In this document: positions 5,190-47,629 of the stretch, piece after piece | How positions within the stretch are numbered: position 1 is the first letter of the stretch | Layout: every line of letters begins with the position of its first letter | Assembly (NCBI GenBank): GCA_045112395.1 | Contig: JBGUHW010000218.1 | Coordinates: forward strand, 1-61,627 | DNA from: Bacteroidales bacterium | Lineage (GTDB): Bacteria; Bacteroidota; Bacteroidia; Bacteroidales; ML635J-15 | Reading direction: 5' to 3' | Length of the DNA stretch: 61,627 nucleotides | Translations under genes and position numbers: made by a program | Notes under the pieces: generated by a model | Seen by the model: only the letters and a program-made list of their open reading frames with translations | Databases searched by the model: none | What the model was told of the DNA's origin: nothing

Positions 5190-5222
5190 CCGTGCAAAAA
5201 TTTGCCGTAAAGATATAACAAT

Positions 5223-5325
5223 ATTTACGATTTACGATTTTTGATTTACGATTTAATGGGTTTGAAGATTTGAAAGATTTGAAAAATTTGCTTGCGCGAA
5301 CTAAAGGTTGAAGATTTGAGGATTG
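5223..5325. repeat. Intergenic array: TTTACGA heptamers followed by TTTGAAGA-type octamers
   Basis: TTTACGA TTTACGA TTTTTGA TTTACGA ... TTTGAAGA TTTGAAAGA TTTGAAAAA. Confidence 0.85.
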
Positions 5326-5451
5326 CAGACACTAACTAATTTATGATGAAAATTATTAATACGGCAACTCCACCATTTAATTTTTCTTAATAAATTTTAT
5401 TCTCACTATTTTTTACTAATTTAGCACCCAAAATAAAAACCTGAAAAAATT

Positions 5452-6870
5452 ATGTTGAGCGAAAACGAAATAAAACGGCAGAAAAGCCTCCTCGAAAGCG
5501 AAGGAAACTTTGTTGACATTGCTGCACCTGCAACACCAGAAAACGGCATAACAATTATTGAAAACCAGCAGAAATACATCGAAACATACGATAATAAAAG
5601 CAAGAACTACAGCATAGAAAAGTTTGTGCCAGCATCGGGAGCGGCAACCAGGATGTTCAAGCGACTCATAGCATTCAACAACGAGCCGAACCTGAAAAAC
5701 CTCCACGACGGAGGCGACTACTCTGTAAAAGCGACAATAGATGCATTGCCCAAGTTCGCATTTTTCGACACGCTGAAAGGCAGCATTAAGGATGCCGAAA
5801 ATCTGGAGGAAGTTTCCGACCACATACTCCACCAACCACTGAATTATGCAGGTCTACCAAAAGGTCTTGTAGAATTTCACAAATACAATGGTTTTTCGCG
5901 CACCGCATTCGAGGAACAGATATTCGAAGGCGTGGCAATGAATAATTCCGAAGCTCCAGCAAAACTTGAATTCACTGTATCGGAAGAACATTACGAAATG
6001 TTCCGCACGTTGCTAGACAAGATTCTGCAAAAGAATAAACTAAATGTTGATGTAAAATTCTCGTTCCAGGAAAAATCCACCAACACAGTTGCAATTTACA
6101 ACGATGGCAGCCTTGTTATGACAGATTCGGGCGAACTTTTCACCCGTCCTGGCGGACATGGTTCGCTGTTGCAGAACCTTAATCAGATTGATGCCGATAT
6201 TATCTTCATCAAGAATATCGATAACATTGTTCATCAGGACTATATGCCAGAAACTCTTCCATACAAAAAACTTCTCGGTGGAGTACTGATAGAAACAGCA
6301 GAAAACATTAAGTCGTATATGCAGAGCCTCGAAAGCGACAAGTCGGCAGAAAATTGCAACCGCATAGCCAACAGCTTGGAAAAGACCTTCTGCACCACCA
6401 TAGAAAGAAACGAAAACCTCTACGACTCGCTCTGCAAATTCATGAATCGCCCAATTCGAGTATGCGGAATGGTGAAAAACACTGGAGAACCTGGCGGTGG
6501 TCCATTTCTTGTAAGAAAAGACGGAAATGTTTCGTTGCAGATAGTTGAAAAAGCCCAGATAAACCTTGCCGACGAACAGCAAAAGGATTATTTCAACAAA
6601 TCGACACACTTCAATCCTGTTGACCTCGTATGCTACACCAAGGATTACACTGGCAAGAAATTCGACTTGAACAAATTCGTTGACACATCAACATGCTTTG
6701 TATCTGAAAAGACATACAACGGCAAACCAATCAAGGTTTTGGAACACCCGGGACTATGGAACGGCTCAATGGCCGACTGGCTTACTATTTTTGTAGAAGT
6801 ACCGCTGATAACCTTCAATCCTGTCAAGGAACTCAACGACTTACTGCGCAAGGAACACCAAGCCAAATAG
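5452..6870 (+). CDS. DUF4301 family protein
   Basis: FVPASGAATRMFK, RPGGHG, GEPGGGPF, THFNPVD, PGLWNGSMA motifs. Confidence 0.9.
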   Translation: MLSENEIKRQKSLLESEGNFVDIAAPATPENGITIIENQQKYIETYDNKSKNYSIEKFVPASGAATRMFKRLIAFNNEPNLKNLHDGGDYSVKATIDALPKFAFFDTLKGSIKDAENLEEVSDHILHQPLNYAGLPKGLVEFHKYNGFSRTAFEEQIFEGVAMNNSEAPAKLEFTVSEEHYEMFRTLLDKILQKNKLNVDVKFSFQEKSTNTVAIYNDGSLVMTDSGELFTRPGGHGSLLQNLNQIDADIIFIKNIDNIVHQDYMPETLPYKKLLGGVLIETAENIKSYMQSLESDKSAENCNRIANSLEKTFCTTIERNENLYDSLCKFMNRPIRVCGMVKNTGEPGGGPFLVRKDGNVSLQIVEKAQINLADEQQKDYFNKSTHFNPVDLVCYTKDYTGKKFDLNKFVDTSTCFVSEKTYNGKPIKVLEHPGLWNGSMADWLTIFVEVPLITFNPVKELNDLLRKEHQAK

Positions 6871-6940
6871 GCGATTACAAACCATTAACTTGCTTGTAGA
6901 AAGCAAAAAATCTGTATTTTTGCAAAAAATAAATTAGAAT

Positions 6941-7552
6941 ATGTTTTCAGGAATAGTAGAAGAAACCGCAAGACTGGTCAGAATTGAAAAGGAACAGAGC
7001 AACATTCATTTTTATTTCACATGCTCTTTTGGCGACCAGCTTCGCATCGATCAAAGCGTTGCCCACAACGGCGTATGCCTCACAGTTGTAGAAATAGATA
7101 AGCCGACAAAGACCTACAAGGTTACGGCAATGAAGGAAACTCTTGACAAGTCGAACCTGGGGCTGCTGAACATTGGCGACGAAGTAAACATTGAGCGTAG
7201 CATGAGCATGGACAAACTCTTTGACGGACATTTGGTTCAAGGACATGTTGACCAAACAGCCAAGTGCATTGATGTTACCGAAAACGGCGGAAGCTGGTAC
7301 TACACTTTCGAATACGACAAGTCGAAAGGCAACATCACGGTAGAAAAAGGTTCTGTTTCGGTAAACGGCGTGAGCCTCACGGTAGTGAACTCGAAGGCAA
7401 ACACTTTTTCCGTATCCATAATTCCGTACACATATCAGGTGACCAACTTCCACTGCTTCAAGGTAGGCACTATAGTAAACCTTGAATTCGACATCATCGG
7501 AAAGTACATACAGAAGATTATGGCTGGCTACCTCGAAGGACTTGGCAAATAA
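6941..7552 (+). CDS. ribE: Riboflavin synthase (alpha chain)
   Basis: MFSGIVE start, NGVCLTV, GHLVQGHVD, VNLEFD. Confidence 0.95.
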   Translation: MFSGIVEETARLVRIEKEQSNIHFYFTCSFGDQLRIDQSVAHNGVCLTVVEIDKPTKTYKVTAMKETLDKSNLGLLNIGDEVNIERSMSMDKLFDGHLVQGHVDQTAKCIDVTENGGSWYYTFEYDKSKGNITVEKGSVSVNGVSLTVVNSKANTFSVSIIPYTYQVTNFHCFKVGTIVNLEFDIIGKYIQKIMAGYLEGLGK

Positions 7553-7555
7553 GAG

Positions 7556-8863
7556 GTGCAACTGATTTCCAAATACCTGAACAGCGTAAGAGCACTGCAA
7601 TTTTTGCAGTTGTTCCGTTTTGTTGCACTGCTTCTCATTGGCATTATCCTGTCGAAGACAAGCATAGGCATCAGTCAAATAGGAACATACGAGACTTTTC
7701 TGCTGATTTCGGGGGCTTCGTGCTTCTTCTGGACCGGCGGTATGTTGCAGACAATGCTTTCGTTGAAACGAGAAGGGAAACAAGAAAAAACTGAAACATA
7801 CTTCAACATATTCTTAATCTTCACAGCATTGTCGTTGATTACAGCCACGGCAATTTTCCTGCTACAATCGCAAATTGCAACATTAGTAGGATTCAGCGGA
7901 AACCGCATACCTTATTTAAAAATACTATTGGCATACATAGTACTATCGAGTCCTGCAAATCTTGTCGAGTACATATATCTTATTGAAAATAAGCCCAAAC
8001 ACATTGCCGCATACGGTGCGATAGTATTCACTTTGCAGATACTTGCCATCACAATCCCCGTAATAATAACCAACGACCTCGGCTACGGACTATACGGTCT
8101 TTTGCTTGCAACAATGGTAAAATTCGTTTGGCTCGTAATTATTATAATAAGGTATTCGCGACTGAGATTCTCAGGGAAATACATTGGACTTTTCCTGAAA
8201 TTATCTGCGCCTTTCATGCTTAGCGTACTGATAGTAAAAGGCATACAATACATCGACTGTCTAATTGTCGCATACAAGTTCGATGAAAGTACCTTCGCGC
8301 AATTCCGTTACGGAGCAAAAGAATTTCCACTTATTCTGTTGCCTGTCACTGCCTTGTCGGAAGCAATATCCTCACGAATAGCCAACAACGAAAGCACAAG
8401 GGATGCACTTGAAAGCATCAAGCGCGAAAACAAGCACATAATGCACATTTGCATTCCCATTGCAATGTTGGCCATAATTACAAGCAAATACCTGTACCCA
8501 CTGGTATTCAACGAAGATTTCTACGAAAGTGCGTTGGTTTTCAACATATTCTGCTTTACTGCCATGTTCAGGTTCATACTTCCCGAAAGCATACTTATTG
8601 GAAGAAGAGAGAGCCGTCCTATTTTGGCAGCAGCTACAATAAACTTAGTAGTTAATGTTGCATTGGGTTTTATACTTGTGAATTTCATTGGGATTGTAGG
8701 CGTTGCCATCGCTTTCCTTGTCGGAAACATAATGGAAAAGATAGCCCTCGTCTCTGTTGTAAAGTCACTCTATGGGATCCGACCGAAAGAATATCTTGAC
8801 ACAAGGATATTCGTGTACTATGCTGCACTTATGGCAGTGTGCATGGTGGTAAGCTTGATATAG
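7556..8863 (+). CDS. MOP/MATE-superfamily flippase-like membrane protein
   Basis: About 12 hydrophobic segments; GTG start; polysaccharide-flippase-like C-terminus. Confidence 0.65.
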   Translation: MQLISKYLNSVRALQFLQLFRFVALLLIGIILSKTSIGISQIGTYETFLLISGASCFFWTGGMLQTMLSLKREGKQEKTETYFNIFLIFTALSLITATAIFLLQSQIATLVGFSGNRIPYLKILLAYIVLSSPANLVEYIYLIENKPKHIAAYGAIVFTLQILAITIPVIITNDLGYGLYGLLLATMVKFVWLVIIIIRYSRLRFSGKYIGLFLKLSAPFMLSVLIVKGIQYIDCLIVAYKFDESTFAQFRYGAKEFPLILLPVTALSEAISSRIANNESTRDALESIKRENKHIMHICIPIAMLAIITSKYLYPLVFNEDFYESALVFNIFCFTAMFRFILPESILIGRRESRPILAAATINLVVNVALGFILVNFIGIVGVAIAFLVGNIMEKIALVSVVKSLYGIRPKEYLDTRIFVYYAALMAVCMVVSLI

Positions 8864-9404
8864 AGGCTGCGCCAGTTTGAATGTTTCAAGTTTCATGTTT
8901 CTGGTTTAAGGTTCAAAGTTCAAGGGTTTAAAAAGTTTGAGGGCTTCGCCGTTTCATGGGCTGACGCCCGTTTCTACACTGCACTGTTTCATGTATCAAG
9001 TTTAAATGGCTGATGCCCGTTTCTAAAAAAAGGAATGTCATGCTGAACTGGTTTCAGCATCTGATTCCTTTTTTTGTTTCTTAGTTTCAATGCCTGCGGC
9101 GTTTGAATGTTTCTTGTTTCATGTTTGAATGGCTGCGCCGTTTCATGGGCTGACGCCCGTTTCTACGCTACGCTGTTTCAAAGTTTAAATGGCTGATGCC
9201 GTTTCTATTTTTAACTTCGCTGAGGGCTTCACCGTTCTAAATTTTTAACAGTCTTGCGGTCTAACGGTCTGGCTGACTGTCAGACAGGTCTTCTGCTCGA
9301 CAGTTGGACTTTTAGCCTTTTCTTCTTCTAGCCTTTTAGCCCATAAAACTCTTTTGCATCTTGTCAGAGAAATCGTAAATCATACTTCCCTATTCGTAAA
9401 TATT
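8864..9404. repeat. Composite intergenic repeat region (GTTTC units with GGC-n-GCC mini-hairpins, REP in a hairpin, octamer element, AAATCGT heptamers)
   Basis: Seen directly; includes an ~80-bp duplication at 8942-9025 and 9131-9207. Confidence 0.85.
9025..9075. terminator. Bidirectional terminator-like hairpin with a REP in its loop
   Basis: AAAAAAAGGAAT [GTCATGCTGAACTGGTTTCAGCATCTG] ATTCCTTTTTTT. Confidence 0.65.
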
Positions 9405-9435
9405 ATTGTATCTTTGCGGACAAATTTTTCGGAAG

Positions 9436-10794
9436 ATGGCAGTCGAACTAAAAAAGGAATTCTTAGATGAACTTACCGAAGTCGTAAAGAACCGAGATTC
9501 GGCAAGGGCTACGGAGATGATTCAGGAAATGCATCCTGCCGACATCGCCGAATACTTCGAGGAAATAAACCTCGACGACTGCTCTTTCATCTTCATGCTT
9601 CTCGATGCAGAAACCAAGGCAGATGTTCTTGTAGAACTCGAGGACGACGAGCGTGAAAAACTTCTAGAAACCATACCTAGCGATGTCATTGGTGAACAGC
9701 TCATCGACAAGATGGAATCCGATGATGCTGCCGATATTCTTGGCGACTTGGACGATGATGTTCAGGAAGAAATCCTTTCGCACGTCAAGGATGTCGACCA
9801 AGCAGGCGATATTGTTGACCTGTTGAGCTATGATGAAGACACCGCCGGTGGTATCATGGCCAAGGAACTTGTTGCTATAAACGAAAATCTGACCGTTAAG
9901 CAAGCCCTTGGCGAAATGCGTGACCAAGCCGAACTGATAGACGAAATCTACTACCTATATGTAGTCGATGACAATAATATATTTAAAGGTACGGTATCTC
10001 TAAAGTCACTGCTGTTCAGTTCCACTAACCAGAAGATTGTCAACATTCTCGAAGAGGACACCGTATCGGTGAAAACCGATGACAAAGCCGAGGAAGTTGC
10101 AAAAATCATGGAAAAGTATGACTTGGTGGCAATTCCTGTTGTCGATAGCATAGGCAGACTGATGGGACGAATCACCATCGATGATGTTGTAGATGTCATC
10201 CGTGAAAATGCCGAAGAGGACTACCAGTTGAGCGCAGGTATTACCAAAGATGTCAACTTTTCGGACAGCGTATTCAAGCAGACAAAATCGCGCATACCCT
10301 GGTTGCTGATTGGTATGCTCGGTGGTGTATTGTCATCACAAATAATAGGTGTCTTCGACGAGGAAATGGCATCATACACCTCGCTTGCAATGTTTTTGCC
10401 GCTAATCGCAGCAATGGGCGGAAACGCAGGTGTACAATCATCGGCTATCGTGGTGCAAGGTCTCGCCAGTGGCGACCTCGACATACATTCAACAGGCAAA
10501 AAGTTGTTCAAGGAATTCCGTATAGGCGCATGCAACGGAATTATATGCGGCGGTTTGATTTTCGCATACAACTTCTTCTTCTCCGACAGTTTTGCACTCA
10601 CTTTGTCGGTAAGCGTTGCCTTGCTTTCGGTAATTGTGTTCGCAACCGTTCTTGGCACATTTATCCCATTGTTGCTAAAGAAAATGAAAGTTGACCCCGC
10701 CATAGCAACCGGACCATTCATTACCACATTCAACGATATAATGGGACTTATAATCTATTTGCTCATCGCAAAGCAGATGTTCGCAATATTCTAG
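9436..10794 (+). CDS. mgtE: Magnesium transporter MgtE
   Basis: HPADIA, CBS pair, GRITIDD, MGGNAGVQ, DPAIATGPFITT; start moved to ATG 9436, downstream of the -7 box. Confidence 0.96.
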   Translation: MAVELKKEFLDELTEVVKNRDSARATEMIQEMHPADIAEYFEEINLDDCSFIFMLLDAETKADVLVELEDDEREKLLETIPSDVIGEQLIDKMESDDAADILGDLDDDVQEEILSHVKDVDQAGDIVDLLSYDEDTAGGIMAKELVAINENLTVKQALGEMRDQAELIDEIYYLYVVDDNNIFKGTVSLKSLLFSSTNQKIVNILEEDTVSVKTDDKAEEVAKIMEKYDLVAIPVVDSIGRLMGRITIDDVVDVIRENAEEDYQLSAGITKDVNFSDSVFKQTKSRIPWLLIGMLGGVLSSQIIGVFDEEMASYTSLAMFLPLIAAMGGNAGVQSSAIVVQGLASGDLDIHSTGKKLFKEFRIGACNGIICGGLIFAYNFFFSDSFALTLSVSVALLSVIVFATVLGTFIPLLLKKMKVDPAIATGPFITTFNDIMGLIIYLLIAKQMFAIF

Positions 10795-11062
10795 GCTGGC
10801 GCCAGTTTGAATGTTTCACGTTTCAGGTTTCTGGTTTTAATGGCTACGCCGTTTCTGTGGCTGACGCTGTTTCTGTGGCTACGCCATTTCTAAGTTTCAA
10901 GTTTCATGGGCGAATGCCCGTTTCTAGGTTTCAGGTTTGGCTTACGCCGAGCTAAAGGTTAACTTAGTTGAGGACTTCGCCGCTCAATGGCTACCGCCGT
11001 TTGAATGTTTCAGGTATGCGTATAACCAGAAACTTGAAACCAGAAACCTTGAAACAAGAAAC
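10794..11062. repeat. Inverted GTTTC...GAAAC repeat array with mini-hairpins between convergent genes
   Basis: Left arm GTTTC units with GGCTACGCC, GGCTTACGCC and similar; right arm CAGAAAC TTGAAAC CAGAAAC. Confidence 0.85.
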
Positions 11063-11067
11063 TTTCC

Positions 11068-11610
11068 TCACTCAAACATTTTCAACATTCCGATTGCATC
11101 GGCGTTGCCCTGCGCTGCCGACTTATGCCAAAGCTCCATAGCCTTTTCAAAATTGCGCTCAACGCCATGCCCGTTGTAATAGCAGATTCCCAAATCATAC
11201 TGCGCCGACATATTTCCCTGATCGGCAGATAATTTCCACCATCGTGCAGCCTCATCGTAATTTTTTTTCACAGCCTCGCCCTCGTAATAGCAGGCTCCCA
11301 TCCTATTCTGCGCCTCTGCATGACCTTTTTCGGCACATTGAAGCCACAAATCGACAGCCGCACCCACATTCCGTTCTACGCCCTGACCATAATAATAGCA
11401 GTTTGCCAAGGCATACATCGCCAAAACATTTCCTGCATCAGCCGACTTGCGATAAAACGGAACCGCTTTCTTAAAGTTTTGTTCGGAATAAAATTGTTCA
11501 GCCTTGTCGAAATCTGCATCCCCAGACTGAGCATACGACACCACTGCAAACATGACAAAAATTGCCGTCAATACCAATCTTACAAAACTACTTGCCTTCA
11601 TATATTCCAT
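11068..11610 (-). CDS. Sel1-repeat (TPR-like) exported protein
   Basis: Repeats A-x-Y-x-LG-x-CYY-x-G-x-GV, KSADQG; signal peptide; start may be 11601. Confidence 0.9.
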   Translation of the reverse strand: MEYMKASSFVRLVLTAIFVMFAVVSYAQSGDADFDKAEQFYSEQNFKKAVPFYRKSADAGNVLAMYALANCYYYGQGVERNVGAAVDLWLQCAEKGHAEAQNRMGACYYEGEAVKKNYDEAARWWKLSADQGNMSAQYDLGICYYNGHGVERNFEKAMELWHKSAAQGNADAIGMLKMFE

Positions 11611-12673
11611 ACAATACTTTCTGTTCGTTTTCCCAATTCAAAACCTTTGAAGCCTCAATGCAATTATTATGATACTCAATTAATTTTGCATCATTAAACA
11701 GCATATTCTTAACTAATACAGCAAGATTTTCTGCATCGTGACCAGCAAAAATTTCGCCAACAGCATATCTTTCAACAACCGCACGCATCTCGGGAAAATC
11801 GGAGCAAACAACTGGAGTTCCCGCTTGGATATAGTCGAATATTTTATTCGGAAGAGCATACTTATAGTTTAGACTTTCGCCCTGCTCCACCGAAAAGCCG
11901 ATTTTTGCCTGAGATGTAAGTTTGTGCAACTCATCAAAGCGAAGATTTCCTGTAAAGACAACCCTATCTGTTAGATTCAAATTTGCAGTCAACTTTTTCA
12001 ACTCCGAATCCATATAGCCTTTGCCAGCAATATATAGCTTATAATCAGGAATATGCTTCATCATTTCTATCAGCAACTCAATACCACGCCCCATATTTAG
12101 CGCACCCTGATACAGAAGGATGTTTTCGCGTCCCTCGTAAGAATGCATTACCTTTGATGTCGGCAAATTGCGTACAACCTTCATGCCGAGACCATACTTT
12201 TCATTGTAATACTTTGCAATAGAATTACATACGGTATATGTTGCAATTGGACGATGAACGCAATGCCTTTCTATCCACAGCCACACCTTTTTCTTAAAGC
12301 CAGAATTCAGAAGTTCGGGAACTTCGGTAAAAAGTTCGTGAGTATCGTAATACAGATTCTTTCTTTTTAGTTTGGAAATCAGCGCATTTGCAAACAAAGT
12401 ATCAAGGTCGTTTGACAGAAGTGCATCGCAACGATGAAATAGCAGATATAAAAAGATCCTTAGATTGAAACACGCATAAAAAAGAAATCCCTTGTTTATC
12501 AGCAGACGGAAACGTATGACCATGTATCGGCGAGATTCCAATTCGGCAGAAGATTTCAGCCTTCTGCACAACACGACCACATCGAACCCCATGTCGCACA
12601 ATGTGTTGCAAACGCGATTCACGCGTTGATCGTTGGTCATGTCGTTTGTTACCGATACAAAAATTCGTTTCAC
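11588..12673 (-). CDS. Glycosyltransferase family 4
   Basis: YYDTHE, LYQGAL, LPNKIFDYIQAGTPVV; GTG start. Confidence 0.88.
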   Translation of the reverse strand: MKRIFVSVTNDMTNDQRVNRVCNTLCDMGFDVVVLCRRLKSSAELESRRYMVIRFRLLINKGFLFYACFNLRIFLYLLFHRCDALLSNDLDTLFANALISKLKRKNLYYDTHELFTEVPELLNSGFKKKVWLWIERHCVHRPIATYTVCNSIAKYYNEKYGLGMKVVRNLPTSKVMHSYEGRENILLYQGALNMGRGIELLIEMMKHIPDYKLYIAGKGYMDSELKKLTANLNLTDRVVFTGNLRFDELHKLTSQAKIGFSVEQGESLNYKYALPNKIFDYIQAGTPVVCSDFPEMRAVVERYAVGEIFAGHDAENLAVLVKNMLFNDAKLIEYHNNCIEASKVLNWENEQKVLYGIYEGK

Positions 12674-12728
12674 CGCCGTAAAAATTTACGACAAAGTTAA
12701 GAATTATTTTGCAACGATAAGCAGAAGT

Positions 12729-13343
12729 CTAATTCTTCGGCTTTTCCTCCAAAATATAATATCTTGAAATTTTAGGATTATTTAAAATATCCGATGGATA
12801 AATAACCTTTTCATCGGCTAACGGAAACTTGTGGCAACGACCTTGAGCCACATCGATGCCCTGACTTTCGAACGACAACTGAATAAGTTGTGAGCAGTAC
12901 AACTTCGTTGTGTCGGTAAGAAGATAATCGTTGTCGAACAGTATTTTCTTTTTCCACCACCTTATGGCTTCTTGCGCAACCTTTTCGAGGACTTCCGGTG
13001 TGGTGTCGTAACGCGCAAAGCAACCTGCGCAAGCCCTATCGGGAGCAAAGAACAAGTCCAAGTCATCCATCTTCAGGTACTGAATTCCACCAGTTTCATT
13101 TTCTTCACCGGGAACTGCATGAACAATCTTCCACTTGCCCTCATATTTCACGAGCATTCCGGAATGGGAATAAATTCCGTTCTTATCGGCAATTTCCACG
13201 ACATAACTCGACACACTCGTACCCCCACGAAAGGCAATGTCACCTTCCTGAAGTTTGGATTCGTCAATAAAAAATTCTGCACCGGATTGACATCCGATGC
13301 AGAAAATTAATTGTACTAAAATTACTATTACTGTTTTGTTCAT
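12729..13343 (-). CDS. Permuted NlpC/P60 (YiiX/YebB-like) papain-like lipoprotein
   Basis: GDIAFR, YSHSG (His), LYCSQL (Cys) in permuted order; lipobox IGC. Confidence 0.82.
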   Translation of the reverse strand: MNKTVIVILVQLIFCIGCQSGAEFFIDESKLQEGDIAFRGGTSVSSYVVEIADKNGIYSHSGMLVKYEGKWKIVHAVPGEENETGGIQYLKMDDLDLFFAPDRACAGCFARYDTTPEVLEKVAQEAIRWWKKKILFDNDYLLTDTTKLYCSQLIQLSFESQGIDVAQGRCHKFPLADEKVIYPSDILNNPKISRYYILEEKPKN

Positions 13344-13345
13344 CG

Positions 13346-13747
13346 TTATTTAACGAACCATACGTCACCAACCTTCTTCAAAGATTCGGTCTTTTCTTCA
13401 TTTTCACCGTTTCCGTAAGTAATAGTTACGTCTACTGTAGCTTCTTCACCTTCAATGCTTTCAGCACCAACTGTGAAATCCTTCATTCCACCCTTTTCAT
13501 TCATAGCTTCCTGAATCTTGCTTGCAGTCATATCAAGCATAGCGTCTACAGATTCCTTTTCTTCCTTTGACATTTCCTTGTTGTAGTCGTAAGTGCTCTG
13601 TACTGCGCCCTTGAAATCACCCTTCTTCAACAATTCATAATAAGCCTTTGTTGCTTCGGTTGGAGTTGCTGCGCCACCCTTCTTTGAACATGATGACATA
13701 CCAAATGCCATTGCAATAACTGCCAATACAATAACTAATTTCTTCAT
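13346..13747 (-). CDS. DUF4878-like lipoprotein (NTF2-like)
   Basis: Lipobox MSSC, PTEATKAYY, ATVDVTITYGNG, LKKVGDVW. Confidence 0.7.
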   Translation of the reverse strand: MKKLVIVLAVIAMAFGMSSCSKKGGAATPTEATKAYYELLKKGDFKGAVQSTYDYNKEMSKEEKESVDAMLDMTASKIQEAMNEKGGMKDFTVGAESIEGEEATVDVTITYGNGENEEKTESLKKVGDVWFVK

Positions 13748-13863
13748 ACTATTATGTTTTTTAAAAGTTAAAAATTATACTGCAAAATTAACACTTAGAT
13801 TTTACTAAGCCAAATAAATTCTAATGTTTTTTCAACAATAAAAGTTCACCAACAAAAACGACA

Positions 13864-13982
13864 CTAGAAATTCCGAAATATTAGAAACATAGAAAGCCAA
13901 AACCAACCATTTCAAATTTTCAAATCGTCAAATCTTTCAAATCAATTAAATCGTAAATCGTACTTCGTCAATCGTAAATAAT
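13864..13982. repeat. Right-arm repeat array (AGAAA, TTCAAAT, AAATCGT) abutting the sufB promoter
   Basis: Seen directly. Confidence 0.8.
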
Positions 13983-14019
13983 TTTGTATCTTTGCACTCC
14001 AATAAAACGAAACAATAAA

Positions 14020-15474
14020 ATGTCTGAAAACACACAGGACAAGGAACTTATAAAGGAAGTCACGCAATCGGAATACAAGTACGGATTCGTTTCCGACATC
14101 GAAGCCGACGAAATTCCCGTTGGTCTTAACGAAGAAACGGTACGACTGATATCCCAGAAGAAAGGTGAACCCGAATGGCTTCTCGAATTCCGACTCAACG
14201 CTTTTGAGAAGTGGAAAAACATGGAACAGCCCAACTGGGGACACCTCGACATTCCACCCATCGACTACCAGAGCATAATATACTACTCGGCACCTAAGCA
14301 GAAGAAAAAACTCAACTCGCTTGACGAAATCGATCCCGAAATCAAAAATACTTTCGACAGGCTCGGCATTCCGCTCGATGAACAGAAACGACTTTCGGGA
14401 GTTGCTTTCGATGCTGTTATGGACAGCGTTTCGGTAAAGACAACTTTCCAGGAACGTCTTGCCGAAGACGGTATCATCTTCTGCTCGTTCAGTGAGGCTG
14501 TGAAAAACCATCCCGACCTTGTGCGCAAATACATGGGCAAGGTTGTGCCATCGGGCGACAACTATTTTGCAGCCCTCAACTCGGCGGTGTTCAGCGACGG
14601 CTCATTCTGCTACATTCCCAAGGGAGTGCGCTGCCCTATCGAACTTTCGACCTATTTCCGCATAAACGCAAGCAACACTGGTCAGTTTGAACGCACACTG
14701 ATAGTAGCCGACGAAGGCGCGTATGTAAGCTACATGGAAGGCTGTACCGCACCACAGCGTGATGAAAATCAGTTGCACGCCGCAATAGTGGAAATTATTG
14801 CCGAAAACGATGCCGAAGTCAAGTACTCGACCGTACAGAACTGGTATCCAGGAAACAAGGAAGGCAAAGGCGGAATCTACAACTTTGTAACCAAGCGCGG
14901 ACTTTGCAACGGAAAGAACTCAAAAATCAGCTGGGCCCAGGTAGAAACCGGTTCGGCAATCACATGGAAATACCCGAGCACAGTGCTCAAAGGCGACAAC
15001 TCGGTATCGGAATTCTACTCGGTAGCCGTTACAAACAACTTCCAGCAGGCAGACACAGGCTCAAAGATGATTCACATCGGCAAGAATACCAGCAGTACAA
15101 TAGTATCTAAAGGTATCTCGGCAGGACGAAGCCAGAACTCGTACCGCGGTATGGTGATGATTGGCAAGAACGCCGACAATGCGCGTAATTTCTCGCAGTG
15201 CGACTCGTTGCTCATGGGCGACAAGTGTGGAGCTCACACCTTCCCCACCCTCGATGTGAACAACGAAACGGCAGTGGTCGAGCACGAAGCTACGACATCG
15301 AAAATCAGCGAAGACCAGATTTTCTACTGCAACCAGCGCGGCATCTCAACCGAAACGGCTATCGGACTGATAGTAAACGGCTACGCCAAGGAAGTCATCA
15401 GCCGTCTGCCGATGGAGTTCGCCGTCGAAGCTCAGAAACTGCTACAAATAAGCTTGGAGGGTAGTGTCGGATAA
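14020..15474 (+). CDS. sufB: Fe-S cluster assembly protein SufB
   Basis: [43 protein letters not shown]; start moved to ATG 14020. Confidence 0.98.
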
Positions 15475-15486
15475 TTACTTTAACCA

Positions 15487-15512: not shown

Positions 15513-15525
15513 GTAACGAACAATA

Positions 15526-16853: not shown

Positions 16854-16857
16854 AATC

Positions 16858-21830: not shown

Positions 21831-24146
21831 TTAACGAACGAGTATCTTTTCTGTATCATTATCACCAACTTTCACGATGTACATTCCTTGCGGCAAATTG
21901 TGTCTTTCTACATCGCTTACAACGGCAAACGACTCCACAACCTGACCTAACATATTATATACCATTACATTCAAGCCTTCTGCACCAGAAATCACCAATT
22001 CGTTATCGTATGAATAGATTTCGATGTTCCTTGCTTCGTCTGACAAAATGGAAGTAACAAGTTTGAATGAAACATCAACTGTAGCATCAGCCGTAACGGT
22101 AAGCGTATAGGTGTTGTTTTCAACTGTAACTGCTTCGCCGTCAACCTTGAATTCATCAAGCTCGTAGCCTTCCGCTGGAGAAATTGTGAAAACAACTTCT
22201 GTGTCGGCAAGCAAGTCTGTCAAAGATTCTGGTTCGGTAGTAACAGTGCCGTTTTCACCGACATTCAAGGTAATGGTGTAGGTTTCAGGTTCTACAGGTA
22301 TCAACTTGAAAGTTACATCGACAGTAGCATCAGCCGTAACGGTAAGCGTATATGTATTGTTTTCAACTGTAACTGCTTCGCCGTCAACCTTGAATTCGTC
22401 AAGTTCGTAGCCTTCCGTTGGAGAAATTGTGAAAACGACTTCCGTGTCGGCAAGCAAGTCGGTCAAAGATTCTGGTTCGGTAGTAACCGTGCCGTTTTCA
22501 CCAACATTAAGCGTAATAGTGTAGGTTTGCGGTGCTGGAGCAGTAAATTCATATCCCGGGAAAGTGTATTTTGCAACAACGCCCTGCCACGAATATGTTG
22601 AGGTGTAAGAAGTTGCGGTTTCGGCAAAAGCAAAATCCAATGCCTTGGTTGCCTGCACGCGAGTTGCAATCAAGAGAGAATCGCCTTTTACTGCGCACGA
22701 ATTTGCAGTTATCGAACCTGTTGATTCGCCCAGAATGTACGATGCAGAAGTTTCAAGATTGTGGTTGAACGAATCGAAGTAGAGCGATTTTGGCGAAGTT
22801 GCCCAGTTGTAGCCGTAAACGAAAACGCTGTCAGCATTCACGGCAAGTCCGAAACTATTTGAAATTCCGCTTGTCTGCTTTACAAAGCCCTTGTCGGCAA
22901 CACCTGTAGTGGCATTGCAGCGGAAAACGAAGCCTGCGTACATAGCTGCCTGTGCCGAAAGTTCATCATCGCCAACATTGAAACCTCCCTGAACGCCACC
23001 AGCGACAAAGAAACTTGAATTGTCGGGAGCGATTTCAAGTGCATTTATCTGCATAAAGTTCTTGTTATTAACCAAAGCACCCTGCACCAGCGACAAATAA
23101 TCAACCGACAAGTCGGAAGCATTTACCCTTGCAGTCCAGAAACTGTACTTGTCGTCGGGTGTAATCTGCGAATTACCAAGCGAAACAACAGCATTTGCAC
23201 CTTTCAGATAACCAACGACATACAATTTTCCGTCCCTGTACTTCATCATCTTGGCAGTTTCACCAACCGACGAGCCGCCAGTAACAATATGACTATTATA
23301 GGTAAGGTCGCTGTTGAGTTTCAGCACAAATGCTGAGCCTGCAAACGCAGAACCACCGTCCCAGTCGGCAACATTGTGTGCCAAAATCTCATTCTCGCCA
23401 ATGTGCATCGTGCGTCTAAGGTTGCCCGTAACGAAGAAATTTCCGTTGGCATCCTGTGCTGCTCCGTAAAGTGAAAATCCATCCGATGTTCCCCAAGCGC
23501 TGCTTGTTGTCGGATTGTCAACTGGATTCCAATCGACTGTTGCACGGACTGCACTGCTAATGTTTCCATCGGCATCTACCTTTACAAAAACTGGCTGATA
23601 CACATTGTGATAGTCGGCATCGGGGAACGAAAACGAAATTGTTGTCTCGGTACCATTGTTGCCCACTAGCTGCAACAAAATGTCTGTTCCGTAGAAATTG
23701 GCGCTTGTGTGACGGGCTTTCAATGCCAGAAATGCACCGCCGTCGGCAGTTGGCGTGTAGTCGCTCGATGCCACATCAACATCACCGTTCTTCGAATAAA
23801 CCTTCCACAAGGCATTTCCGCTGAAATCGTGCTTTACCAACATAATGTTATTGTTGTAGCTCGTTCCGGAGTATGGAGCGCCCGTCATATCCTCACCCAG
23901 CAAATGTCCCTGCGTAGCAGCCACATCGCCAGTTGTGTCGGCATCGGAGCCCATACTTGCCAAAGTATATACATACCCAGCATCGTCCACCTTAGTGCCA
24001 TAAATGGTGGTCTGGGCCTTGTTCTGCGCGTTTGCCTCGGCAATAGCAGCCGAATACCAGTCAAAACTTATTTCCTGCGTCTGCGCACCAACGGCAAACG
24101 ACAAGCCAATAAAAAACAAAAACAATGATAAAACTTTACAATTCAT
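21831..24146 (-). CDS. T9SS-secreted surface protein: beta-rich N domain, two tandem B-repeat-like domains, type A CTD
   Basis: Signal peptide; two near-identical repeats (81-aa period); C-terminal VYNMLGQ...LPQGMYIVKV...KILVR. Confidence 0.85.
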   Translation of the reverse strand: MNCKVLSLFLFFIGLSFAVGAQTQEISFDWYSAAIAEANAQNKAQTTIYGTKVDDAGYVYTLASMGSDADTTGDVAATQGHLLGEDMTGAPYSGTSYNNNIMLVKHDFSGNALWKVYSKNGDVDVASSDYTPTADGGAFLALKARHTSANFYGTDILLQLVGNNGTETTISFSFPDADYHNVYQPVFVKVDADGNISSAVRATVDWNPVDNPTTSSAWGTSDGFSLYGAAQDANGNFFVTGNLRRTMHIGENEILAHNVADWDGGSAFAGSAFVLKLNSDLTYNSHIVTGGSSVGETAKMMKYRDGKLYVVGYLKGANAVVSLGNSQITPDDKYSFWTARVNASDLSVDYLSLVQGALVNNKNFMQINALEIAPDNSSFFVAGGVQGGFNVGDDELSAQAAMYAGFVFRCNATTGVADKGFVKQTSGISNSFGLAVNADSVFVYGYNWATSPKSLYFDSFNHNLETSASYILGESTGSITANSCAVKGDSLLIATRVQATKALDFAFAETATSYTSTYSWQGVVAKYTFPGYEFTAPAPQTYTITLNVGENGTVTTEPESLTDLLADTEVVFTISPTEGYELDEFKVDGEAVTVENNTYTLTVTADATVDVTFKLIPVEPETYTITLNVGENGTVTTEPESLTDLLADTEVVFTISPAEGYELDEFKVDGEAVTVENNTYTLTVTADATVDVSFKLVTSILSDEARNIEIYSYDNELVISGAEGLNVMVYNMLGQVVESFAVVSDVERHNLPQGMYIVKVGDNDTEKILVR

Positions 24147-27409: not shown

Positions 27410-28693
27410 ATGAAGAAACAGATATTATTTTTAATGATTTTTGCGACAATCCTCGCATTCACATCCTGCAAGAAGGACAATGTAAACTTTGTTTTCCCGA
27501 CAAGCAACATAAGGATTATCCTTCCCGAAAATGCCAACATAACCGCACGGAACAACCAGACCGTAAAGTTCACCAACCGCACCACAGGCGAAGTGAAAAC
27601 CGTAAGTTACGGCAACGAAGTGGAACTTACCAAAGGTCTGTACGACTGCGACTATACCGCCGAAGTGGAATACATTGTCGATGGTGTAACCTGCAACGCG
27701 ATGCTGAGCGGCAGTGTAAGTTCGGTAAATATTATCGACGAAACAGGCTTTCCAATCACCACCTACCTTATGGTTTCGTGCAACGACTTCATAATCGAAG
27801 AAATCTTTTTCACTGGCACACTGCGTTCGTCGGGCACAACCTACAACGGCGACAGCTATATAAAACTGTACAACAATACCGACAAGGTGCTGTATGCCGA
27901 TGGCGTTGCAATTCTGGAATCGGAATTCACCTCGACTACAAAATACGACTACTCGCCCGACATTCAAGCCACTACGATGACTGTCGAAGCCATTTATGTA
28001 ATCCCTGGCAGCGGAACCGAACATCCCGTGCAACCAGGCGAAAGTATCGTAATTTGTGATGTCGGCATCGACCACCGCGACGCAAATCCAAACTCGTTCG
28101 ACCTTAGTCACGCCGACTTCGAATGGTACGACGAATCATCGTCGCCATCGAATATGGACATCGACGGAGCCACCGTGCCAAACTTGGACAAGTGGTACTG
28201 CTACACGGCAAGCTACTGGATTTTGCACAACCGCGGTTTCAGATCGTACGCCATAGCAAGGATTCCAATCGCCAAGGATGCATACCTGCAAAGCTATTCG
28301 TACACCTACAACTACACGATGCATCTTGTTGCCGGCGACTTCGATATGCAACGCACCGCCTACCAGATTCCTAACGAATGGATTATCGACGGCGTGAATT
28401 GTAGCGTGGAAGCAGAACGCAAATGGAACATCCTGCCGCCAAACATCGATGCAGGCTGGACTCACTGCGGAACAATCGACCACGACCAGACACGCTTTTT
28501 CAAGAGCGTTCGCCGCAAAATGCTGTCGCTAACGTCCGACGGACGAAGAGTGCTGAAGGACACCAACAATTCCACCGACGACTTCAATACCGAATGCGTC
28601 CCTTCGCTCATCGAGCAGCAAGGAACTGCTACCGATGCCAACGGTACACCAGCAAATGGAGTAACATACGATGGGGTAACACCAATGAATTGA
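27410..28693 (+). CDS. DUF4876 family lipoprotein
   Basis: Lipobox FTSC; IEEIFFTG, YIKLYNNTD, DLSHADFEWY, LKDTNNSTDDF. Confidence 0.85.
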   Translation: MKKQILFLMIFATILAFTSCKKDNVNFVFPTSNIRIILPENANITARNNQTVKFTNRTTGEVKTVSYGNEVELTKGLYDCDYTAEVEYIVDGVTCNAMLSGSVSSVNIIDETGFPITTYLMVSCNDFIIEEIFFTGTLRSSGTTYNGDSYIKLYNNTDKVLYADGVAILESEFTSTTKYDYSPDIQATTMTVEAIYVIPGSGTEHPVQPGESIVICDVGIDHRDANPNSFDLSHADFEWYDESSSPSNMDIDGATVPNLDKWYCYTASYWILHNRGFRSYAIARIPIAKDAYLQSYSYTYNYTMHLVAGDFDMQRTAYQIPNEWIIDGVNCSVEAERKWNILPPNIDAGWTHCGTIDHDQTRFFKSVRRKMLSLTSDGRRVLKDTNNSTDDFNTECVPSLIEQQGTATDANGTPANGVTYDGVTPMN

Positions 28694-28810
28694 TTTACGA
28701 TTTTAGATTGACGATTTACGATTGAAACGGACGATGCGTGCATCGTCCCAAACATAGAAACACAGAAACATTCAAACATAGAAACGGCGAAGCCATAGAA
28801 ACCTAGAAAC
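28693..28810. repeat. TTTACGA arm + REP + GAAAC arm
   Basis: TTTACGA TTTTAGA TTGACGA TTTACGA; GGACGATGCGTGCATCGTCC; ATAGAAAC ACAGAAAC ATTCAAAC ATAGAAAC GGCGAAGCC. Confidence 0.85.
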
Positions 28811-28819
28811 AACCCACGC

Positions 28820-30316: not shown

Positions 30317-30358
30317 GGGCTAAAAAGCTAAAAGGCGAAAAGGCTGGAAGGCTGGAAG
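30317..30358. repeat. AAAGGCTA-type octamer arm
   Basis: GGGCTAAA AAGCTAAA AGGCGAAA AGGCTGGA AGGCTGGA. Confidence 0.8.
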
Positions 30359-33535: not shown

Positions 33536-33702
33536 AATTTTATTTGTTTTTTAATTTGTTTGAAATTTTATTTAGTGATGGCAAATGTAAGAAATATTTC
33601 TGAATCGCAAACCTAAAATAATGATAATTTGTATCGCACATCAAACCATCATAAACCAGAATCATGTACAATCGCTGTGCGCCAAAACGCAACAAGATTT
33701 GT

Positions 33703-33842
33703 GGGCTAAAAGGCTAAAAGAAGAGAAGGCTAAAAGTCTAGCAGAAGGCCGGCCAATCTGTCTGCAAGTCTGTCAGCCTGTGAGACTGCAAGACTGTCAG
33801 ACTGTGAGCCTGTTAGCCTGTGAGACTGTTAGACAGCAAGCC
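33703..33842. repeat. Octamer element (AAAGGCTA arm, core, TGTNAGMC arm)
   Basis: Left part is the near reverse complement of 9306-9345; right part has about 8 tandem octamers. Confidence 0.85.
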
Positions 33843-33964
33843 TTCAAGCACCATTTCGGCATGCACATTGCAATATAAAATACCTGTTGTTAAAATAATT
33901 TTAAGGTTACAATACCGTTTATAAACGGATAGTTTCGTATATTTGCAGTTTAAATTTTTATGAG

Positions 33965-38379: not shown

Positions 38380-38380
38380 A

Positions 38381-39202: not shown

Positions 39203-39203
39203 T

Positions 39204-42133: not shown

Positions 42134-42270
42134 ATGACAATTCTCAATTGACAATGGATAATTAACAATTTATAATTCCATACAAATCATCAACCTTTAG
42201 CACAACGAAGTTAAATTTTCAAACCACGAGAAACCCAGAAACTTAGAAACGGGCGTTAGCTCATTGAAAC
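42134..42270. repeat. TGACAAT arm and GAAAC arm
   Basis: TGACAAT TCTCAAT TGACAAT GGATAAT TAACAAT ... GAGAAAC CCAGAAAC TTAGAAAC GGGCGTTAGCTC. Confidence 0.75.
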
Positions 42271-42284
42271 ACATAAACCTTCCC

Positions 42285-43010: not shown

Positions 43011-43147
43011 GCGCTAGCCCATGGTACAATCGCGCCATGCGCGATTCAACAATTCAACATATTAACAACAAATAATGAACAAATAATTTTCAAGACGTGA
43101 AAATAAATAATAAAATTGTGCGTTATTTGCATTATATATTGCCGTAT

Positions 43148-45684: not shown

Positions 45685-45699
45685 TACAGGTAATGCCTC

Positions 45700-46866
45700 A
45701 TGGAAGAATTTATCAGCCTGATTAGCAAAAGCCTCGAAGCGAATACATTCGTCAAGATTACATTGTCGTCGCCAATGCGCAAGGACATTGATGTACGCAA
45801 TATCTACATCAAGCAGGTGGAAATAAAGGGCGAACGCAAACTCAGTTTCACCTACCGCTACCAGAAACGCGACATCGTGAAAAACTATGCTTTCGATGAA
45901 GCGATTAGCAACCTGCGCAAGCACATCGGCGAAGAATATAGGTTCGCAACGCTTTTCACTACTGCTGGCGACTTCGTATTGCAACACAACGGCAACCACT
46001 TCAAGATGAAGCAACAGGAAGCCAGCATTACCGAATTGCCTTCACTTAGCCACGACCGTAACAAGAACCGCAAACTTGAGGCTTCCGATGGCAAGAAATA
46101 CCTTCATCTGCTCGGAATAACCGATGCAAATGGCAATGTAAATCCTAAGTCGCAGGACAAGTTCAGACAGATAACCCACTACATCGAAATCCTTAGCAGC
46201 CACATCGATACGCTTCCTACAGACCGCCCAATAACAGTCGCCGACATGGGAAGCGGCAAGGGCTACCTTACATTCGCACTATACGACTACCTTGTCAATA
46301 CGCTCAAATGCAAGGCTGATGTCACCGGCGTTGAAATTCGCCACGACATGGTGGAACTCTGCAATAAATTTGCCTCCGAATCGGGATTTGAAGGCTTGCA
46401 CTTCGCCGAGAGCGCAATCGACAGCTACAATGCCGACAAACTCGACATGCTAATTGCACTCCATGCATGCAACACCGCTACCGATGATGCACTTGCAAAA
46501 GGCATTTCCGCAGGAGCACAAGACATTGTAGCCGCACCGTGTTGCCAGCACCAGATTCGCAACGAAATGGAAAGCGGAACACCAAACGAAATTCTGTCGC
46601 CGATACTACGCCACGGAATTTTTATGGAACGCCAGGCCGAACTCGTCACCGACAGCATAAGGGTGCTTTACTTGCAGTATCACGGCTACAAGACAAAGAT
46701 AGTTGAGTTCATTTCGGATGCACACACCCACAAGAATGTCATGATTATCGCGACAAAATCAACAGTTTCTGAAGAACAAAAGCAGAAAATACTAGCTCAA
46801 CTGGAAGCACTCAAGACATTCTTTGGAATAAAGCAACACTACATCGAAACAAAATGGCAGAAATAA
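45700..46866 (+). CDS. SAM-dependent methyltransferase
   Basis: DMGSGKGYLTF, ALHACNTATD, APCC, HTHKN. Confidence 0.88.
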   Translation: MEEFISLISKSLEANTFVKITLSSPMRKDIDVRNIYIKQVEIKGERKLSFTYRYQKRDIVKNYAFDEAISNLRKHIGEEYRFATLFTTAGDFVLQHNGNHFKMKQQEASITELPSLSHDRNKNRKLEASDGKKYLHLLGITDANGNVNPKSQDKFRQITHYIEILSSHIDTLPTDRPITVADMGSGKGYLTFALYDYLVNTLKCKADVTGVEIRHDMVELCNKFASESGFEGLHFAESAIDSYNADKLDMLIALHACNTATDDALAKGISAGAQDIVAAPCCQHQIRNEMESGTPNEILSPILRHGIFMERQAELVTDSIRVLYLQYHGYKTKIVEFISDAHTHKNVMIIATKSTVSEEQKQKILAQLEALKTFFGIKQHYIETKWQK

Positions 46867-47387
46867 AGGCAATAGTATACGAATCTAACACAGGCTTCAC
46901 TAAGGAGTATGCCGAACTTTTGTCCGAAATTATCGGTATTCCAGCCATTCCCACCATTGACAACTCGATGTTTCATGGCGAGCGAGAACCTGTGATTTTC
47001 CTCGGCTGGGTATGTGCCGGCAAGATAAACGGCATACGCATGGCACGACTGAAATTCAATCCTATAATCATTGCTGGCGTAGGAATGACACCGCAAAGCG
47101 ACAAATATGCTTTTGCCCTGGCACAACAAAACAACATTGATGTGCCGTTTTACTACCTGCAAGGCGGAATGCACCGCGAGAGGCTGAAAGGATTCTACAA
47201 GATTATGTTCAATATGGTAGCCCGTCCAATATTGCGCAAAGCCGAAAAGGGCAAGTCGCAACTCACGGAACAAGAGCAATACATGGTGGACTTGATAAAA
47301 AATGGCGGTTCGTTCGTCTGTCGCGAAAATCTTGAAGAATTAATAAAGAAGTACGAGGAAATAAATAGTGTGCTGAGAATGTCGTAA
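46854..47387 (+). CDS. Flavodoxin-like protein
   Basis: IVYESNTGFTKEYA, FYYLQGG. Confidence 0.7.
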   Translation: MAEIKAIVYESNTGFTKEYAELLSEIIGIPAIPTIDNSMFHGEREPVIFLGWVCAGKINGIRMARLKFNPIIIAGVGMTPQSDKYAFALAQQNNIDVPFYYLQGGMHRERLKGFYKIMFNMVARPILRKAEKGKSQLTEQEQYMVDLIKNGGSFVCRENLEELIKKYEEINSVLRMS

Positions 47388-47391
47388 CGAA

Positions 47392-47557
47392 TGTTTCTCG
47401 TTTTCGGCTTGCAGGCACAAAGGCTAAAAGACCGACAGGCTTGCAGGCTAACAGTCTGGCGTACAGTCAGACAGGTCTTCAGCTAGACAGTTAGACTTTA
47501 AGCCAAATAATCTTCAATAAATCAATCGTAAATCGTACTTCGTAAATCGTAAATATT
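47392..47557. repeat. Octamer element plus AAATCGT heptamers abutting promoter
   Basis: 47441-47504 closely matches 9254-9317. Confidence 0.85.
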
Positions 47558-47629
47558 ATTGTATTTTTGCACCTGCAAATTTTCAACGGAATTACAGATT
47601 TAAATTACTGATTAATAAAACTTTATAAT

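Follow-up and report, generated by a model that had tools for sequence, protein, structure and literature searches.

A heptad-repeat block as a probable reusable upstream half of sigma-A-type promoters in a clade of Bacteroidales

How do four unrelated genes on a single contig come to be preceded by the same arrangement of 7-bp repeats, set at one and the same distance from a promoter-like box? The question is posed by contig JBGUHW010000218.1 of a Bacteroidales bacterium (assembly GCA_045112395.1), a stretch of 61,627 nucleotides analysed here over its whole length and referred to below as the window, in which a 47-bp module built of heptads lies upstream of mgtE, sufB, a yitT-family gene and a gene for a lolD-like ABC-transporter ATPase. 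We favour the answer, to which we assign a probability of about 0.6, that the module represents the core of a sigma-A-type promoter of the Bacteroidota kind, available for reuse as a cassette.

Each window module consists of four AAATCGT-like heptads, a fifth unit AAATAWT, four further nucleotides and an 8-nt box (Table 1). When the sequence was re-read, all four modules stood where a preliminary description of this DNA had placed them and with the spacing it gave; its observations that ACTT opens the third unit in three of the four copies (mgtE, sufB and yitT) and that the -7 box of sufB and that of yitT have TTCG 19 nt upstream also held, and its names for the downstream genes agree with the Pfam families of their products (MgtE, SufBD, YitT and ABC_tran). 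Its formula of four AAATCGT copies was right in number, the heptads themselves being degenerate, with no exact fourfold copy in any module. Heptad pairs with at most two mismatches number 16 in the window against 1.06 expected, and the maximum across 100 shuffles was 4; the window arrays are thus no product of chance. Searching the window against Rfam returned no family at any module, the sole match being a tRNA at 61040-61123, and a scan for sigma-70 promoters and terminators gave counts not above those of shuffles, the sigma-70 model being irrelevant to Bacteroidota promoters.

The four modules belong to a large family within their own genome (this assembly, G000; 3.14 Mb in 223 contigs, 42% G+C). 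It holds 94 AAATCGT arrays of at least three units, one of them inside an open reading frame (ORF), and its commonest 11-mer is AAATCGTAAAT, with 117 copies. By strict criteria, 43 modules are linked to a TAnnTTTG box (P-type modules), and every one contains exactly four heptads: counted upstream from the box, units u-5 to u-2 match AAATCGT and u-6 is random. Heptads that stop after a set number, with random sequence beginning at the following unit, do not form an open-ended microsatellite. The spacing described as identical is so in the window copies and varies across the genome, array and box being separated by 10 nt in 23 modules, by 11 nt in 16 and by 9 nt in 4. Counted from the box, the third heptad (u-3) departs from the others in a consistent way, reading A[C/A]TTCGT: position 2 is C in 17/43 copies, and position 3 is T in 23/43 and other than A in 28/43, against a non-A base in just 3-6/43 at the remaining units (A in 37-40/43).

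The association with the box is equally apparent from single words. Relative to TAnnTTTG (3587 words), an exact AAATCGT ends 10 nt upstream 19 times, 11 nt upstream 13 times, 9 nt upstream four times and 12 nt upstream twice, and never ends 5-8 nt upstream, with extra peaks at +7 and +14; for control words such as TAnnTTTC, no pile-up of AAATCGT at a fixed distance was found. The sequences around the box are also distinctive when set beside a generic set of 331 TAnnTTTG sites, which lie at most 60 nt from an ORF start, lack heptamer words and include chance matches. The box has the form TAYYTTTG in 40/43 modules compared with 151/331 generic promoters, its last base being G in 41 modules and A in two, and TTG directly precedes it in 15/43 modules compared with 20/331 generic promoters (p = 5e-7). 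Similarity among module loci reaches 70-83% over 72-130 nt, as in the pairs lolD/sufB (82.7% over 81 nt), yitT with a locus on contig C163 (83.3% over 78 nt) and sufB with a locus on contig C36 (82.5% over 80 nt). Taken together, the TTG before the box, the TAYYTTTG bias and the similarity between loci argue that the P-type copies are related by descent and would not be the outcome of convergence.

The nature of the module is suggested by its layout. Promoters of the Bacteroidota primary sigma factor (sigma-ABfr) carry TAnnTTTG at -7 and TTTG near -33 (PMC7366714). In the generic set, TTG is most frequent at gaps of 19 nt (37 cases) and 20 nt (33 cases) upstream of the box, other gaps having about 7-24, and, measured from the start of the box, the sequence is T-rich from -26 to -21 and A-rich from -41 to -38, from -32 to -30 and from -11 to -6; the ordinary promoters of G000 are laid out like sigma-ABfr promoters. 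The modules likewise present a TAnnTTTG box 8-34 nt before gene starts (ending in A in the lolD copy) and a T-rich word about 18-19 nt upstream of it, and their A-tracts and T-containing variant heptad coincide with the A-rich and T-rich positions of generic promoters. This positional match is the main argument that the module may constitute a complete upstream half of a promoter, in which the variant heptad replaces the -33 element. Unlike sigma-ABfr promoters, in which this region is locus-specific, the modules have one repeat-built sequence from about -51 to -13 at about 43 genes.

According to the proposed mechanism, the TAYYTTTG box would act as the -7 element, and the AAATAWT(N)TTG spacer would supply the A/T-rich stretch that is also present in the ordinary promoters of G000. 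The third heptad from the box, through its change from AAATCGT to A[C/A]TTCGT, would be read as the -33 element, and the two distal heptads would contribute A-tracts at about 30 and 40 nt upstream of the box, where ordinary promoters have them too. Transcription would then start just after the box. The heptads themselves may stem from a short tandem repeat family that forms much of the intergenic DNA of the clade, DNA that probably turns over through the replacement of whole blocks, as far as the borders of sequence under selection; four-heptad blocks would have come to precede the -7 boxes of 43 or more unrelated housekeeping genes, where purifying selection may retain the blocks of some loci and others would be swapped out again. 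With about forty unrelated housekeeping genes having the same front end, the data suggest that a short repeat can serve as an interchangeable promoter part. The preliminary description had offered three readings of the modules, and the first of these, a portable repeat-derived promoter in which the repeat supplies the -33 element, is the best supported, with the amendment that TTCG stands 18 nt from the box in 23 of the 43 modules.

Table 1. Heptad modules, box-less arrays and box-like motifs in the window.
Feature	Position	Strand	Sequence	Parts and remarks
Module upstream of mgtE	9370..9416	+	AAATCGT AAATCAT ACTTCCC TATTCGT AAATATT ATTG TATCTTTG	Heptads 9370-9397; spacer AAATATT ATTG 9398-9408; -7 box TATCTTTG 9409-9416; ATG 9436
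Module upstream of sufB	13948..13994	+	AAATCGT AAATCGT ACTTCGT CAATCGT AAATAAT TTTG TATCTTTG	Variant heptad ACTTCGT 13962-13968; box TATCTTTG 13987-13994; ATG 14020
Module upstream of yitT-family gene	47523..47569	+	CAATCGT AAATCGT ACTTCGT AAATCGT AAATATT ATTG TATTTTTG	Variant heptad ACTTCGT 47537-47543; box TATTTTTG 47562-47569; ATG 47630
Module upstream of lolD-like ABC-transporter ATPase gene	5254-5208	-	AAATCGT AAATCAA AAATCGT AAATCGT AAATATT GTTA TATCTTTA	Box TATCTTTA 5215-5208, last base A; gene 4536-5189 (-)
Box-less (C-type) array	28690..28724	-	CAATCGT AAATCGT CAATCTA AAATCGT AAATCAA	Without -7 box
Box-less (C-type) array	55527..55554	+	AAATCGT AATTCGT AAATCGT AAATCAT	Without -7 box
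Motif recurring before or after arrays	9353..9367	+	TTTGCATCTTGTCAG	Resembles spacer plus box (ATTGTATCTTTGCAC), without the TA..TTTG letters
Second pseudo-box copy	55504..55516	+	ATTGCATCTTGTC	Just 5' of the array at 55527

Gene calls were crude, taken as the longest ATG ORFs (with a minimum of 120 aa in G000 and of 90 aa at loci from other phyla), so that start and stop distances carry error. A co-oriented ORF lies downstream of 42/46 box-linked arrays, and in 33/41 copies with an ORF the box ends no more than 34 nt before the ATG, 8-34 nt being typical. Pfam searches with 20 of the downstream proteins identified a TrxB-like protein, two class I tRNA synthetases, PheT, lysine aminomutase, SDR, serine dehydratase, HolA, EtfB, PdxA, a B12-binding mutase subunit, a Na/Ca exchanger, two glycosyltransferases, Lpd, TsaB, a chromate transporter, a DEAD-box helicase, MoxR and SSB. 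These 20 proteins and the products of the four window genes have no common function and fall in different Pfam families; the module-bearing genes are a cross-section of housekeeping functions, not a regulon.

How far the module extends beyond this genome was determined among its relatives. Of the 39 species of the genus, 13 contain 10-44 occurrences of two exact heptads, three contain 1-3 and 23 contain none, and the array-rich species are the closest relatives of G000, with MgtE 94-99% identical. The strict fusion pattern of array and box is found 14 times in G000 and 7-11 times in each of five sister species; among 400 other genomes of the class it turned up in just three, with 1-3 copies apiece, and fusion to promoters is close to being a property of this clade alone. 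The third heptad is other than AAATCGT in 41 of the 43 sister-species copies listed. At individual loci, presence and absence were compared without a species tree, so gains and losses of the module are not told apart. The mgtE module is present in G000, G020, G009 and G010 and absent from G024, G007, G018 and G002; the yitT module is present in G000, G020, G002, G007 and G024 and absent from G018, G009, G010 and G011; the lolD module is present in G000, G020, G002 and G007 and absent from G010, G009, G011, G024 and G018; and the sufB module is present in G000 and G020 and absent from the other six species. At all four loci the -7 box and the 5' untranslated region are kept in the sister species with or without the module, and the DNA 5' of the box is unrelated. 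At sufB in G010, G011, G002 and G009 (loci L030-L034), an AGAAACN heptamer array is fused to the same -7 box, indicating that repeat-built promoter fronts are not limited to AAATCGT.

Two loci outside the window delimit the conserved sequence. Upstream of ileS, 32/39 module columns and 8/8 box columns are invariant in five species, and at a locus on contig C89 the figures are 36/39 and 7/8 in four species; just upstream of the module at ileS or the C89 locus, 1/38 columns is invariant. A nearly invariant module beside unrelated upstream DNA implies that selection reaches as far as the module's 5' boundary, some 50 nt from the downstream end of the box. The number of units is constant as well, at four plus the spacer unit, at mgtE in G000, G020, G009 and G010 and in the four to five species compared at ileS and C89.

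Retention of all four-heptad bases across four to five species at two loci would also be expected if the heptads were an operator array for a protein that reads 7-bp units, either a global regulator or a nucleoid-associated protein; the model here would be ribbon-helix-helix repressors, with one dimer per heptad and the box register reflecting activation or repression geometry. Such a protein would account for the constant four units in box-linked and box-less copies alike, for similar-sized arrays in distant phyla, high-GC genomes included, and for arrays that are oriented toward genes, also as divergent pairs, in other Bacteroidia. The rotated heptad AATCGTA also matches 5/7 letters of the omega-repressor heptad WATCACW, a resemblance that speaks for an operator. 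We nevertheless consider an operator, which corresponds to the second reading of the preliminary description and is the main rival of the promoter cassette, unlikely: the downstream genes lack a common function, the orthologous promoters of sister species lack the array, and the position-specific change in the third heptad fits the preferences of RNA polymerase at array-free promoters. Nor did a candidate protein emerge; the Pfam family Omega_Repress (PF07764), which was the only ribbon-helix-helix family searched, was unmatched in G000, a result that carries little information, since it was equally unmatched in 14 control genomes.

Returning to the promoter cassette, the same four units also occur without a box. 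In 30 strict C-type modules of G000 they are followed by AAATCCC, AAATCAA or AAATCCA; 14 of these modules end -4 to +2 nt from a convergent stop codon, five precede TTTGCATCTTGTCAG and 11 have other contexts. Where TTTGCATCTTGTCAG follows the array (5/30), tandem units of about 53 bp result, as seen on contigs C130, C83 and C90. Two C-type arrays lie in the window and were absent from the preliminary description. The first overlaps by 4 nt the stop codon (28691-28693) of a convergent DUF4876 gene, and the second abuts the stop of a convergent TPR-CHAT gene (55554-60953, -) and differs between G000 and G020 by a unit swap, AATTCGT versus AAATCTA. This TPR-CHAT gene and its neighbour (50707-55404, -) are adjacent large paralogues whose products have many TPR repeats and a C-terminal CHAT protease-like domain; contig C40 carries a further paralogue, whose similar 3' end likewise precedes an array of this type. 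On contig C221 of G000, near 2636, a box-less array lies 3 nt from a sequence that by appearance only resembles a tRNA or tmRNA 3' end (…GGTTCGATTCCCGGCAGCTCCACCCA).

The arrays are embedded in intergenic DNA that is itself a mosaic, composed of tandem families with 7-8-nt units and of further short modules; where intergenic regions bear arrays, nearly all of their 10-nt bins match 10-70 other loci. Other tandem families include GTTTCAN, CTTTTAGC, AACCAGA, AAACATAG, GGCTAAAA, TGACAAT and the 24-nt unit CTGCAAGCCTGTCAGACTGTGAGA, which fill 8864-9436, 10813-11064, 28750-28811, 30318-30358, 33676-33843 and 42135-42250 of the window. Further intergenic repeat families of G000 appear among its commonest 11-mers, at about 45-90 copies each: the palindrome AGACGCAAAATTTTGCGTCT and the words GCCCTCAACGAAGTTAA and AACGGCGAAGCC, found for example on contig C43 near 25530. 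Across the window G000 and G020 are 90-97% identical and are separated by intergenic block indels and by whole-unit swaps inside arrays. At 9025-9075, downstream of a gene whose end is at 8863, a hairpin with a T-run has the look of a two-way terminator; in its place G020 (locus L040) has tandem repeats of the TTCAAAG/TTCAATAG type. Within genes, a 243-bp tandem repeat (1.9 copies, 93% match) lies at 22072-22528, in a 771-aa ORF (21831-24146, -).

A landscape of this kind raises the alternative that the arrays are a neutral, self-propagating intergenic satellite that extends until it reaches selected sequence and has no role in transcription. The mosaic itself and the block indels and unit swaps between close species are in keeping with such a satellite, as is the mgtE array, which has 5 substitutions within 21 nt between G000 and G020 beside nearly identical flanks. 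Furthermore, 13 of 23 arrays facing a convergent gene end -4 to +3 nt from its stop, against 1.5 expected under uniform placement, and at two of these loci the homology shared by the species runs no further than the stop codon, with the repeat families of other species flush there instead. The flush position therefore marks the start of selection and is nothing specific to AAATCGT. A neutral filler would not be expected to show the constancy of four units, the position-specific variant heptad or the conserved spacer, and it sits badly with a module that is nearly invariant at ileS and C89 while the adjacent upstream DNA is unrelated. We judge this account distinctly improbable.

It was also asked whether the module could be the end of a small mobile element, of the MITE (miniature inverted-repeat transposable element) or Correia kind, that either inserts at a set distance from sigma-A promoters or carries an outward promoter. 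The copies are dispersed and numerous, their edges are sharp, they are polymorphic in presence between species, and similarity at times runs 80-130 nt upstream into other repeat modules, all of which such an element could produce. The composite upstream part is, on the other hand, variable in make-up, and the DNA 5' of the module differs in every species. An inverted-repeat search at the four window modules returned three short inverted pairs, none of them framing a module, and alignments of orthologous loci revealed no target-site duplication and no clean empty site with both flanks conserved, the whole upstream region being replaced. The earlier suggestion of an element that inserts at a set distance from promoters failed on these points, lacking both terminal inverted repeats and any filled and empty pair with both flanks conserved, and a mobile element of any of these kinds now seems very improbable. 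From the lack of inverted ends and of clean empty sites, we infer that the promoter cassette would have spread by recombination or template switching between repeats and not by transposition.

Heptad arrays are not restricted to the clade in which they are fused to promoters. Three heptads with at most two mismatches were found in 56 of 401 sampled Bacteroidota genomes (43 of 180 genera), mostly in other orders of the same class; in this sample a reversed control word gave 0-2 matches per strand except in one genome. A prokaryote-wide scan with one genome per species returned at least 120 stretches. Among the matches listed are Cyclobacteriaceae, Saprospiraceae, Chitinophagales, Draconibacterium, Akkermansia, Verrucomicrobia, Acidobacteriota, Chloroflexota, a cyanobacterium, Planctomycetota and Actinomycetota, and the arrays from other phyla among them mostly have 3-6 units, even in high-GC DNA. 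About 11 of 87 such arrays end at most 5 nt from a start codon and about 15 of 87 lie -4 to +5 nt from a convergent stop, by crude ORF calls. In other Bacteroidia, arrays point toward genes, divergent pairs included. At loci L172 (G301), L175 (G229), L178 (G401) and L058 (a rumen Bacteroidales metagenome-assembled genome), the array ends directly at ATG; the protein encoded at L058 opens with residues like those of MurG. Loci L182 (G185) and L073 contain tandem units of about 55 bp, with three or four AAATCGT-type heptads and GTTGTCAGTTGTCGG-type repeats, which resemble the 53-bp units of heptads and TTTGCATCTTGTCAG in G000.

Arrays that end 0-5 nt before start codons in other lineages bring up a role in RNA: they could form an unstructured A-rich leader for translation independent of a Shine-Dalgarno sequence, place stops in each of the three frames or offer Rho a loading site. 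Each of the three forward frames of the array does contain TAA, and UC recurs once every 7 nt; the TAACTGA heptamer repeats have been proposed to act post-transcriptionally (PMC4679880). In the clade, however, a transcript from the promoter in question would lack the array, which lies upstream of the -7 box, and the text consulted on Rho gives no 7-nt rule (PMC9499579). We accordingly give an RNA role very little credence.

The distribution leaves room for a broader and rather doubtful conjecture, namely that AAATCGT arrays of about four units are a cross-phylum cis-element at gene boundaries, ahead of start codons and promoters and behind stop codons, which a putative conserved factor would read or generate there; this gut clade would have co-opted it as the standard upstream half of its housekeeping promoters. 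If true, it would tie the puzzle of the TAACTGA and short tandemly repeated repetitive (STRR) heptamers to a general mechanism. The occurrence of the same heptad in unrelated phyla, often at gene boundaries, in any case reopens the question of why bacteria keep heptamer repeats.

Several observations weigh against the promoter cassette. The -33-like word in the modules is TTCG or CTCG, in contrast to the TTTG of sigma-ABfr promoters, and it lies 18 nt before the box in the 23/43 copies with a spacing of 10 nt and 19 nt before it in the spacing-11 copies, compared with a generic peak at 19-20 nt. The variant third heptad is also found in 10/30 C-type copies without a box, which points to its being partly inherited with the block and not selected promoter by promoter. 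Sister species run the same genes without the module, which is dispensable there, and where it is conserved, at ileS and C89, base conservation is near-total and goes beyond the usual contact needs of RNA polymerase. The arrays in phyla with other promoter types imply that the origin or function of the heptad is independent of Bacteroidota promoters. Finally, the RNA-labelled runs consist of assembled contigs, which are unable to show starts.

Within positions 5001-15000 of the window, RNA-labelled assemblies from gut, sheep gut and bovine metagenomes contain contigs 90-99% identical to parts of the sequence, each run covering a small share of the window. Among four such runs, a contig of run X6 ends at 9431 and one of run X3 begins at 9438, past the mgtE box at 9409-9416, and a contig of run X6 begins at 14009, past the sufB box at 13987-13994; no conclusion on starts was drawn from these edges, and missing cover over the arrays carries no weight. 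Some of the RNA-labelled contigs join the module to other flanks, as expected for a dispersed repeat in related organisms.

If the promoter cassette is real, it would be a case of natural modular promoter construction in Bacteroidota, in which a 39-nt block replaces the locus-specific -50 to -13 region at dozens of genes. Blocks swapped between sister species would then help to show what the poorly defined sigma-A -33 and upstream region must contain. Engineering of gut and rumen Bacteroidales is difficult, and such a block would give it a ready-made portable promoter part; it would also be a worked example of promoter reuse without a transposon.

Several published systems can be compared with the module. 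Promoter reuse before unrelated genes has been surveyed as putative mobile promoters (Nijveen, Matus-Garcia and van Passel 2012, PMC3575422). In both cases unrelated genes are preceded by highly similar upstream sequences. Several module pairs have at least 80% identity over 72-81 nt, and the survey's measure of at least 80% over at least 50 nt before non-paralogous genes is reached, with its -150 to -50 window fitting only partly. The published cases are mostly pairs, in contrast to a family of about 43 copies per genome in about 13 species, and the module differs further in being built of tandem heptads and in lying about -20 to -70 from the ATG.

Heptamer repeats as such are familiar. Cyanobacterial STRR heptamers are a related repeat type, and tandem intergenic heptamer sets, many per genome and in patchy taxa, are a feature that the AAATCGT arrays have in common with repeats of the TAACTGA and STRR type. 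TAACTGA direct repeats are intergenic in Beggiatoaceae, cyanobacteria and five Bacteroidetes (PMC4679880). Like the AAATCGT arrays, they form short intergenic tandem sets pointing at the downstream gene, are spread patchily across phyla, include some sets reversed just after stop codons and occur alongside other heptamer families. The arrays described here differ in the heptad itself, in a fixed length of four units with one position-specific variant and, within the clade, in standing before a -7 box and not beside the start codon: in G000 the box and 8-34 nt intervene, whereas in other lineages arrays do lie within a few nucleotides of the start.

Repeats with promoter activity are also on record, in the BrickBuilt MITE of Porphyromonas gingivalis (PMC4596501) and in the Correia elements cited in PMC3575422. 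Their copies are scattered and strictly confined to intergenic DNA, include tandem repeats and can lend promoter activity to neighbouring genes, as the module may. No leader or tail and no inverted ends of the BrickBuilt sort were found for the module, its unit is 7 nt and not 23, and it measures about 47 bp and ends at the -7 box.

Heptads of a different function precede promoters elsewhere. The omega-repressor heptads of inc18 plasmids are protein-bound heptad repeats upstream of promoters, and protein-bound TTTTGAT heptads are described at the cholera toxin promoter (10.1101/2021.05.14.444153). The module resembles both in its contiguous 7-bp direct repeats abutting or overlapping the upstream promoter element; it is distinguished by a copy number fixed at four instead of varying between strains and by its presence at about 43 housekeeping promoters instead of one operon or plasmid. 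A phase-variable promoter repeat was considered as a further counterpart and rejected, because copy number is the same across species at mgtE, ileS and C89.

The literature searched, in main texts only, held no description of the AAATCGT module, and two or more units (in six rotations and strands) were printed solely in an unrelated cancer-cell paper. The -7/-33 consensus, promoter reuse, heptamer repeats and a repeat-bearing promoter MITE are all already known; set beside these systems, the novelty lies in a promoter half that is both built from repeats and reusable.

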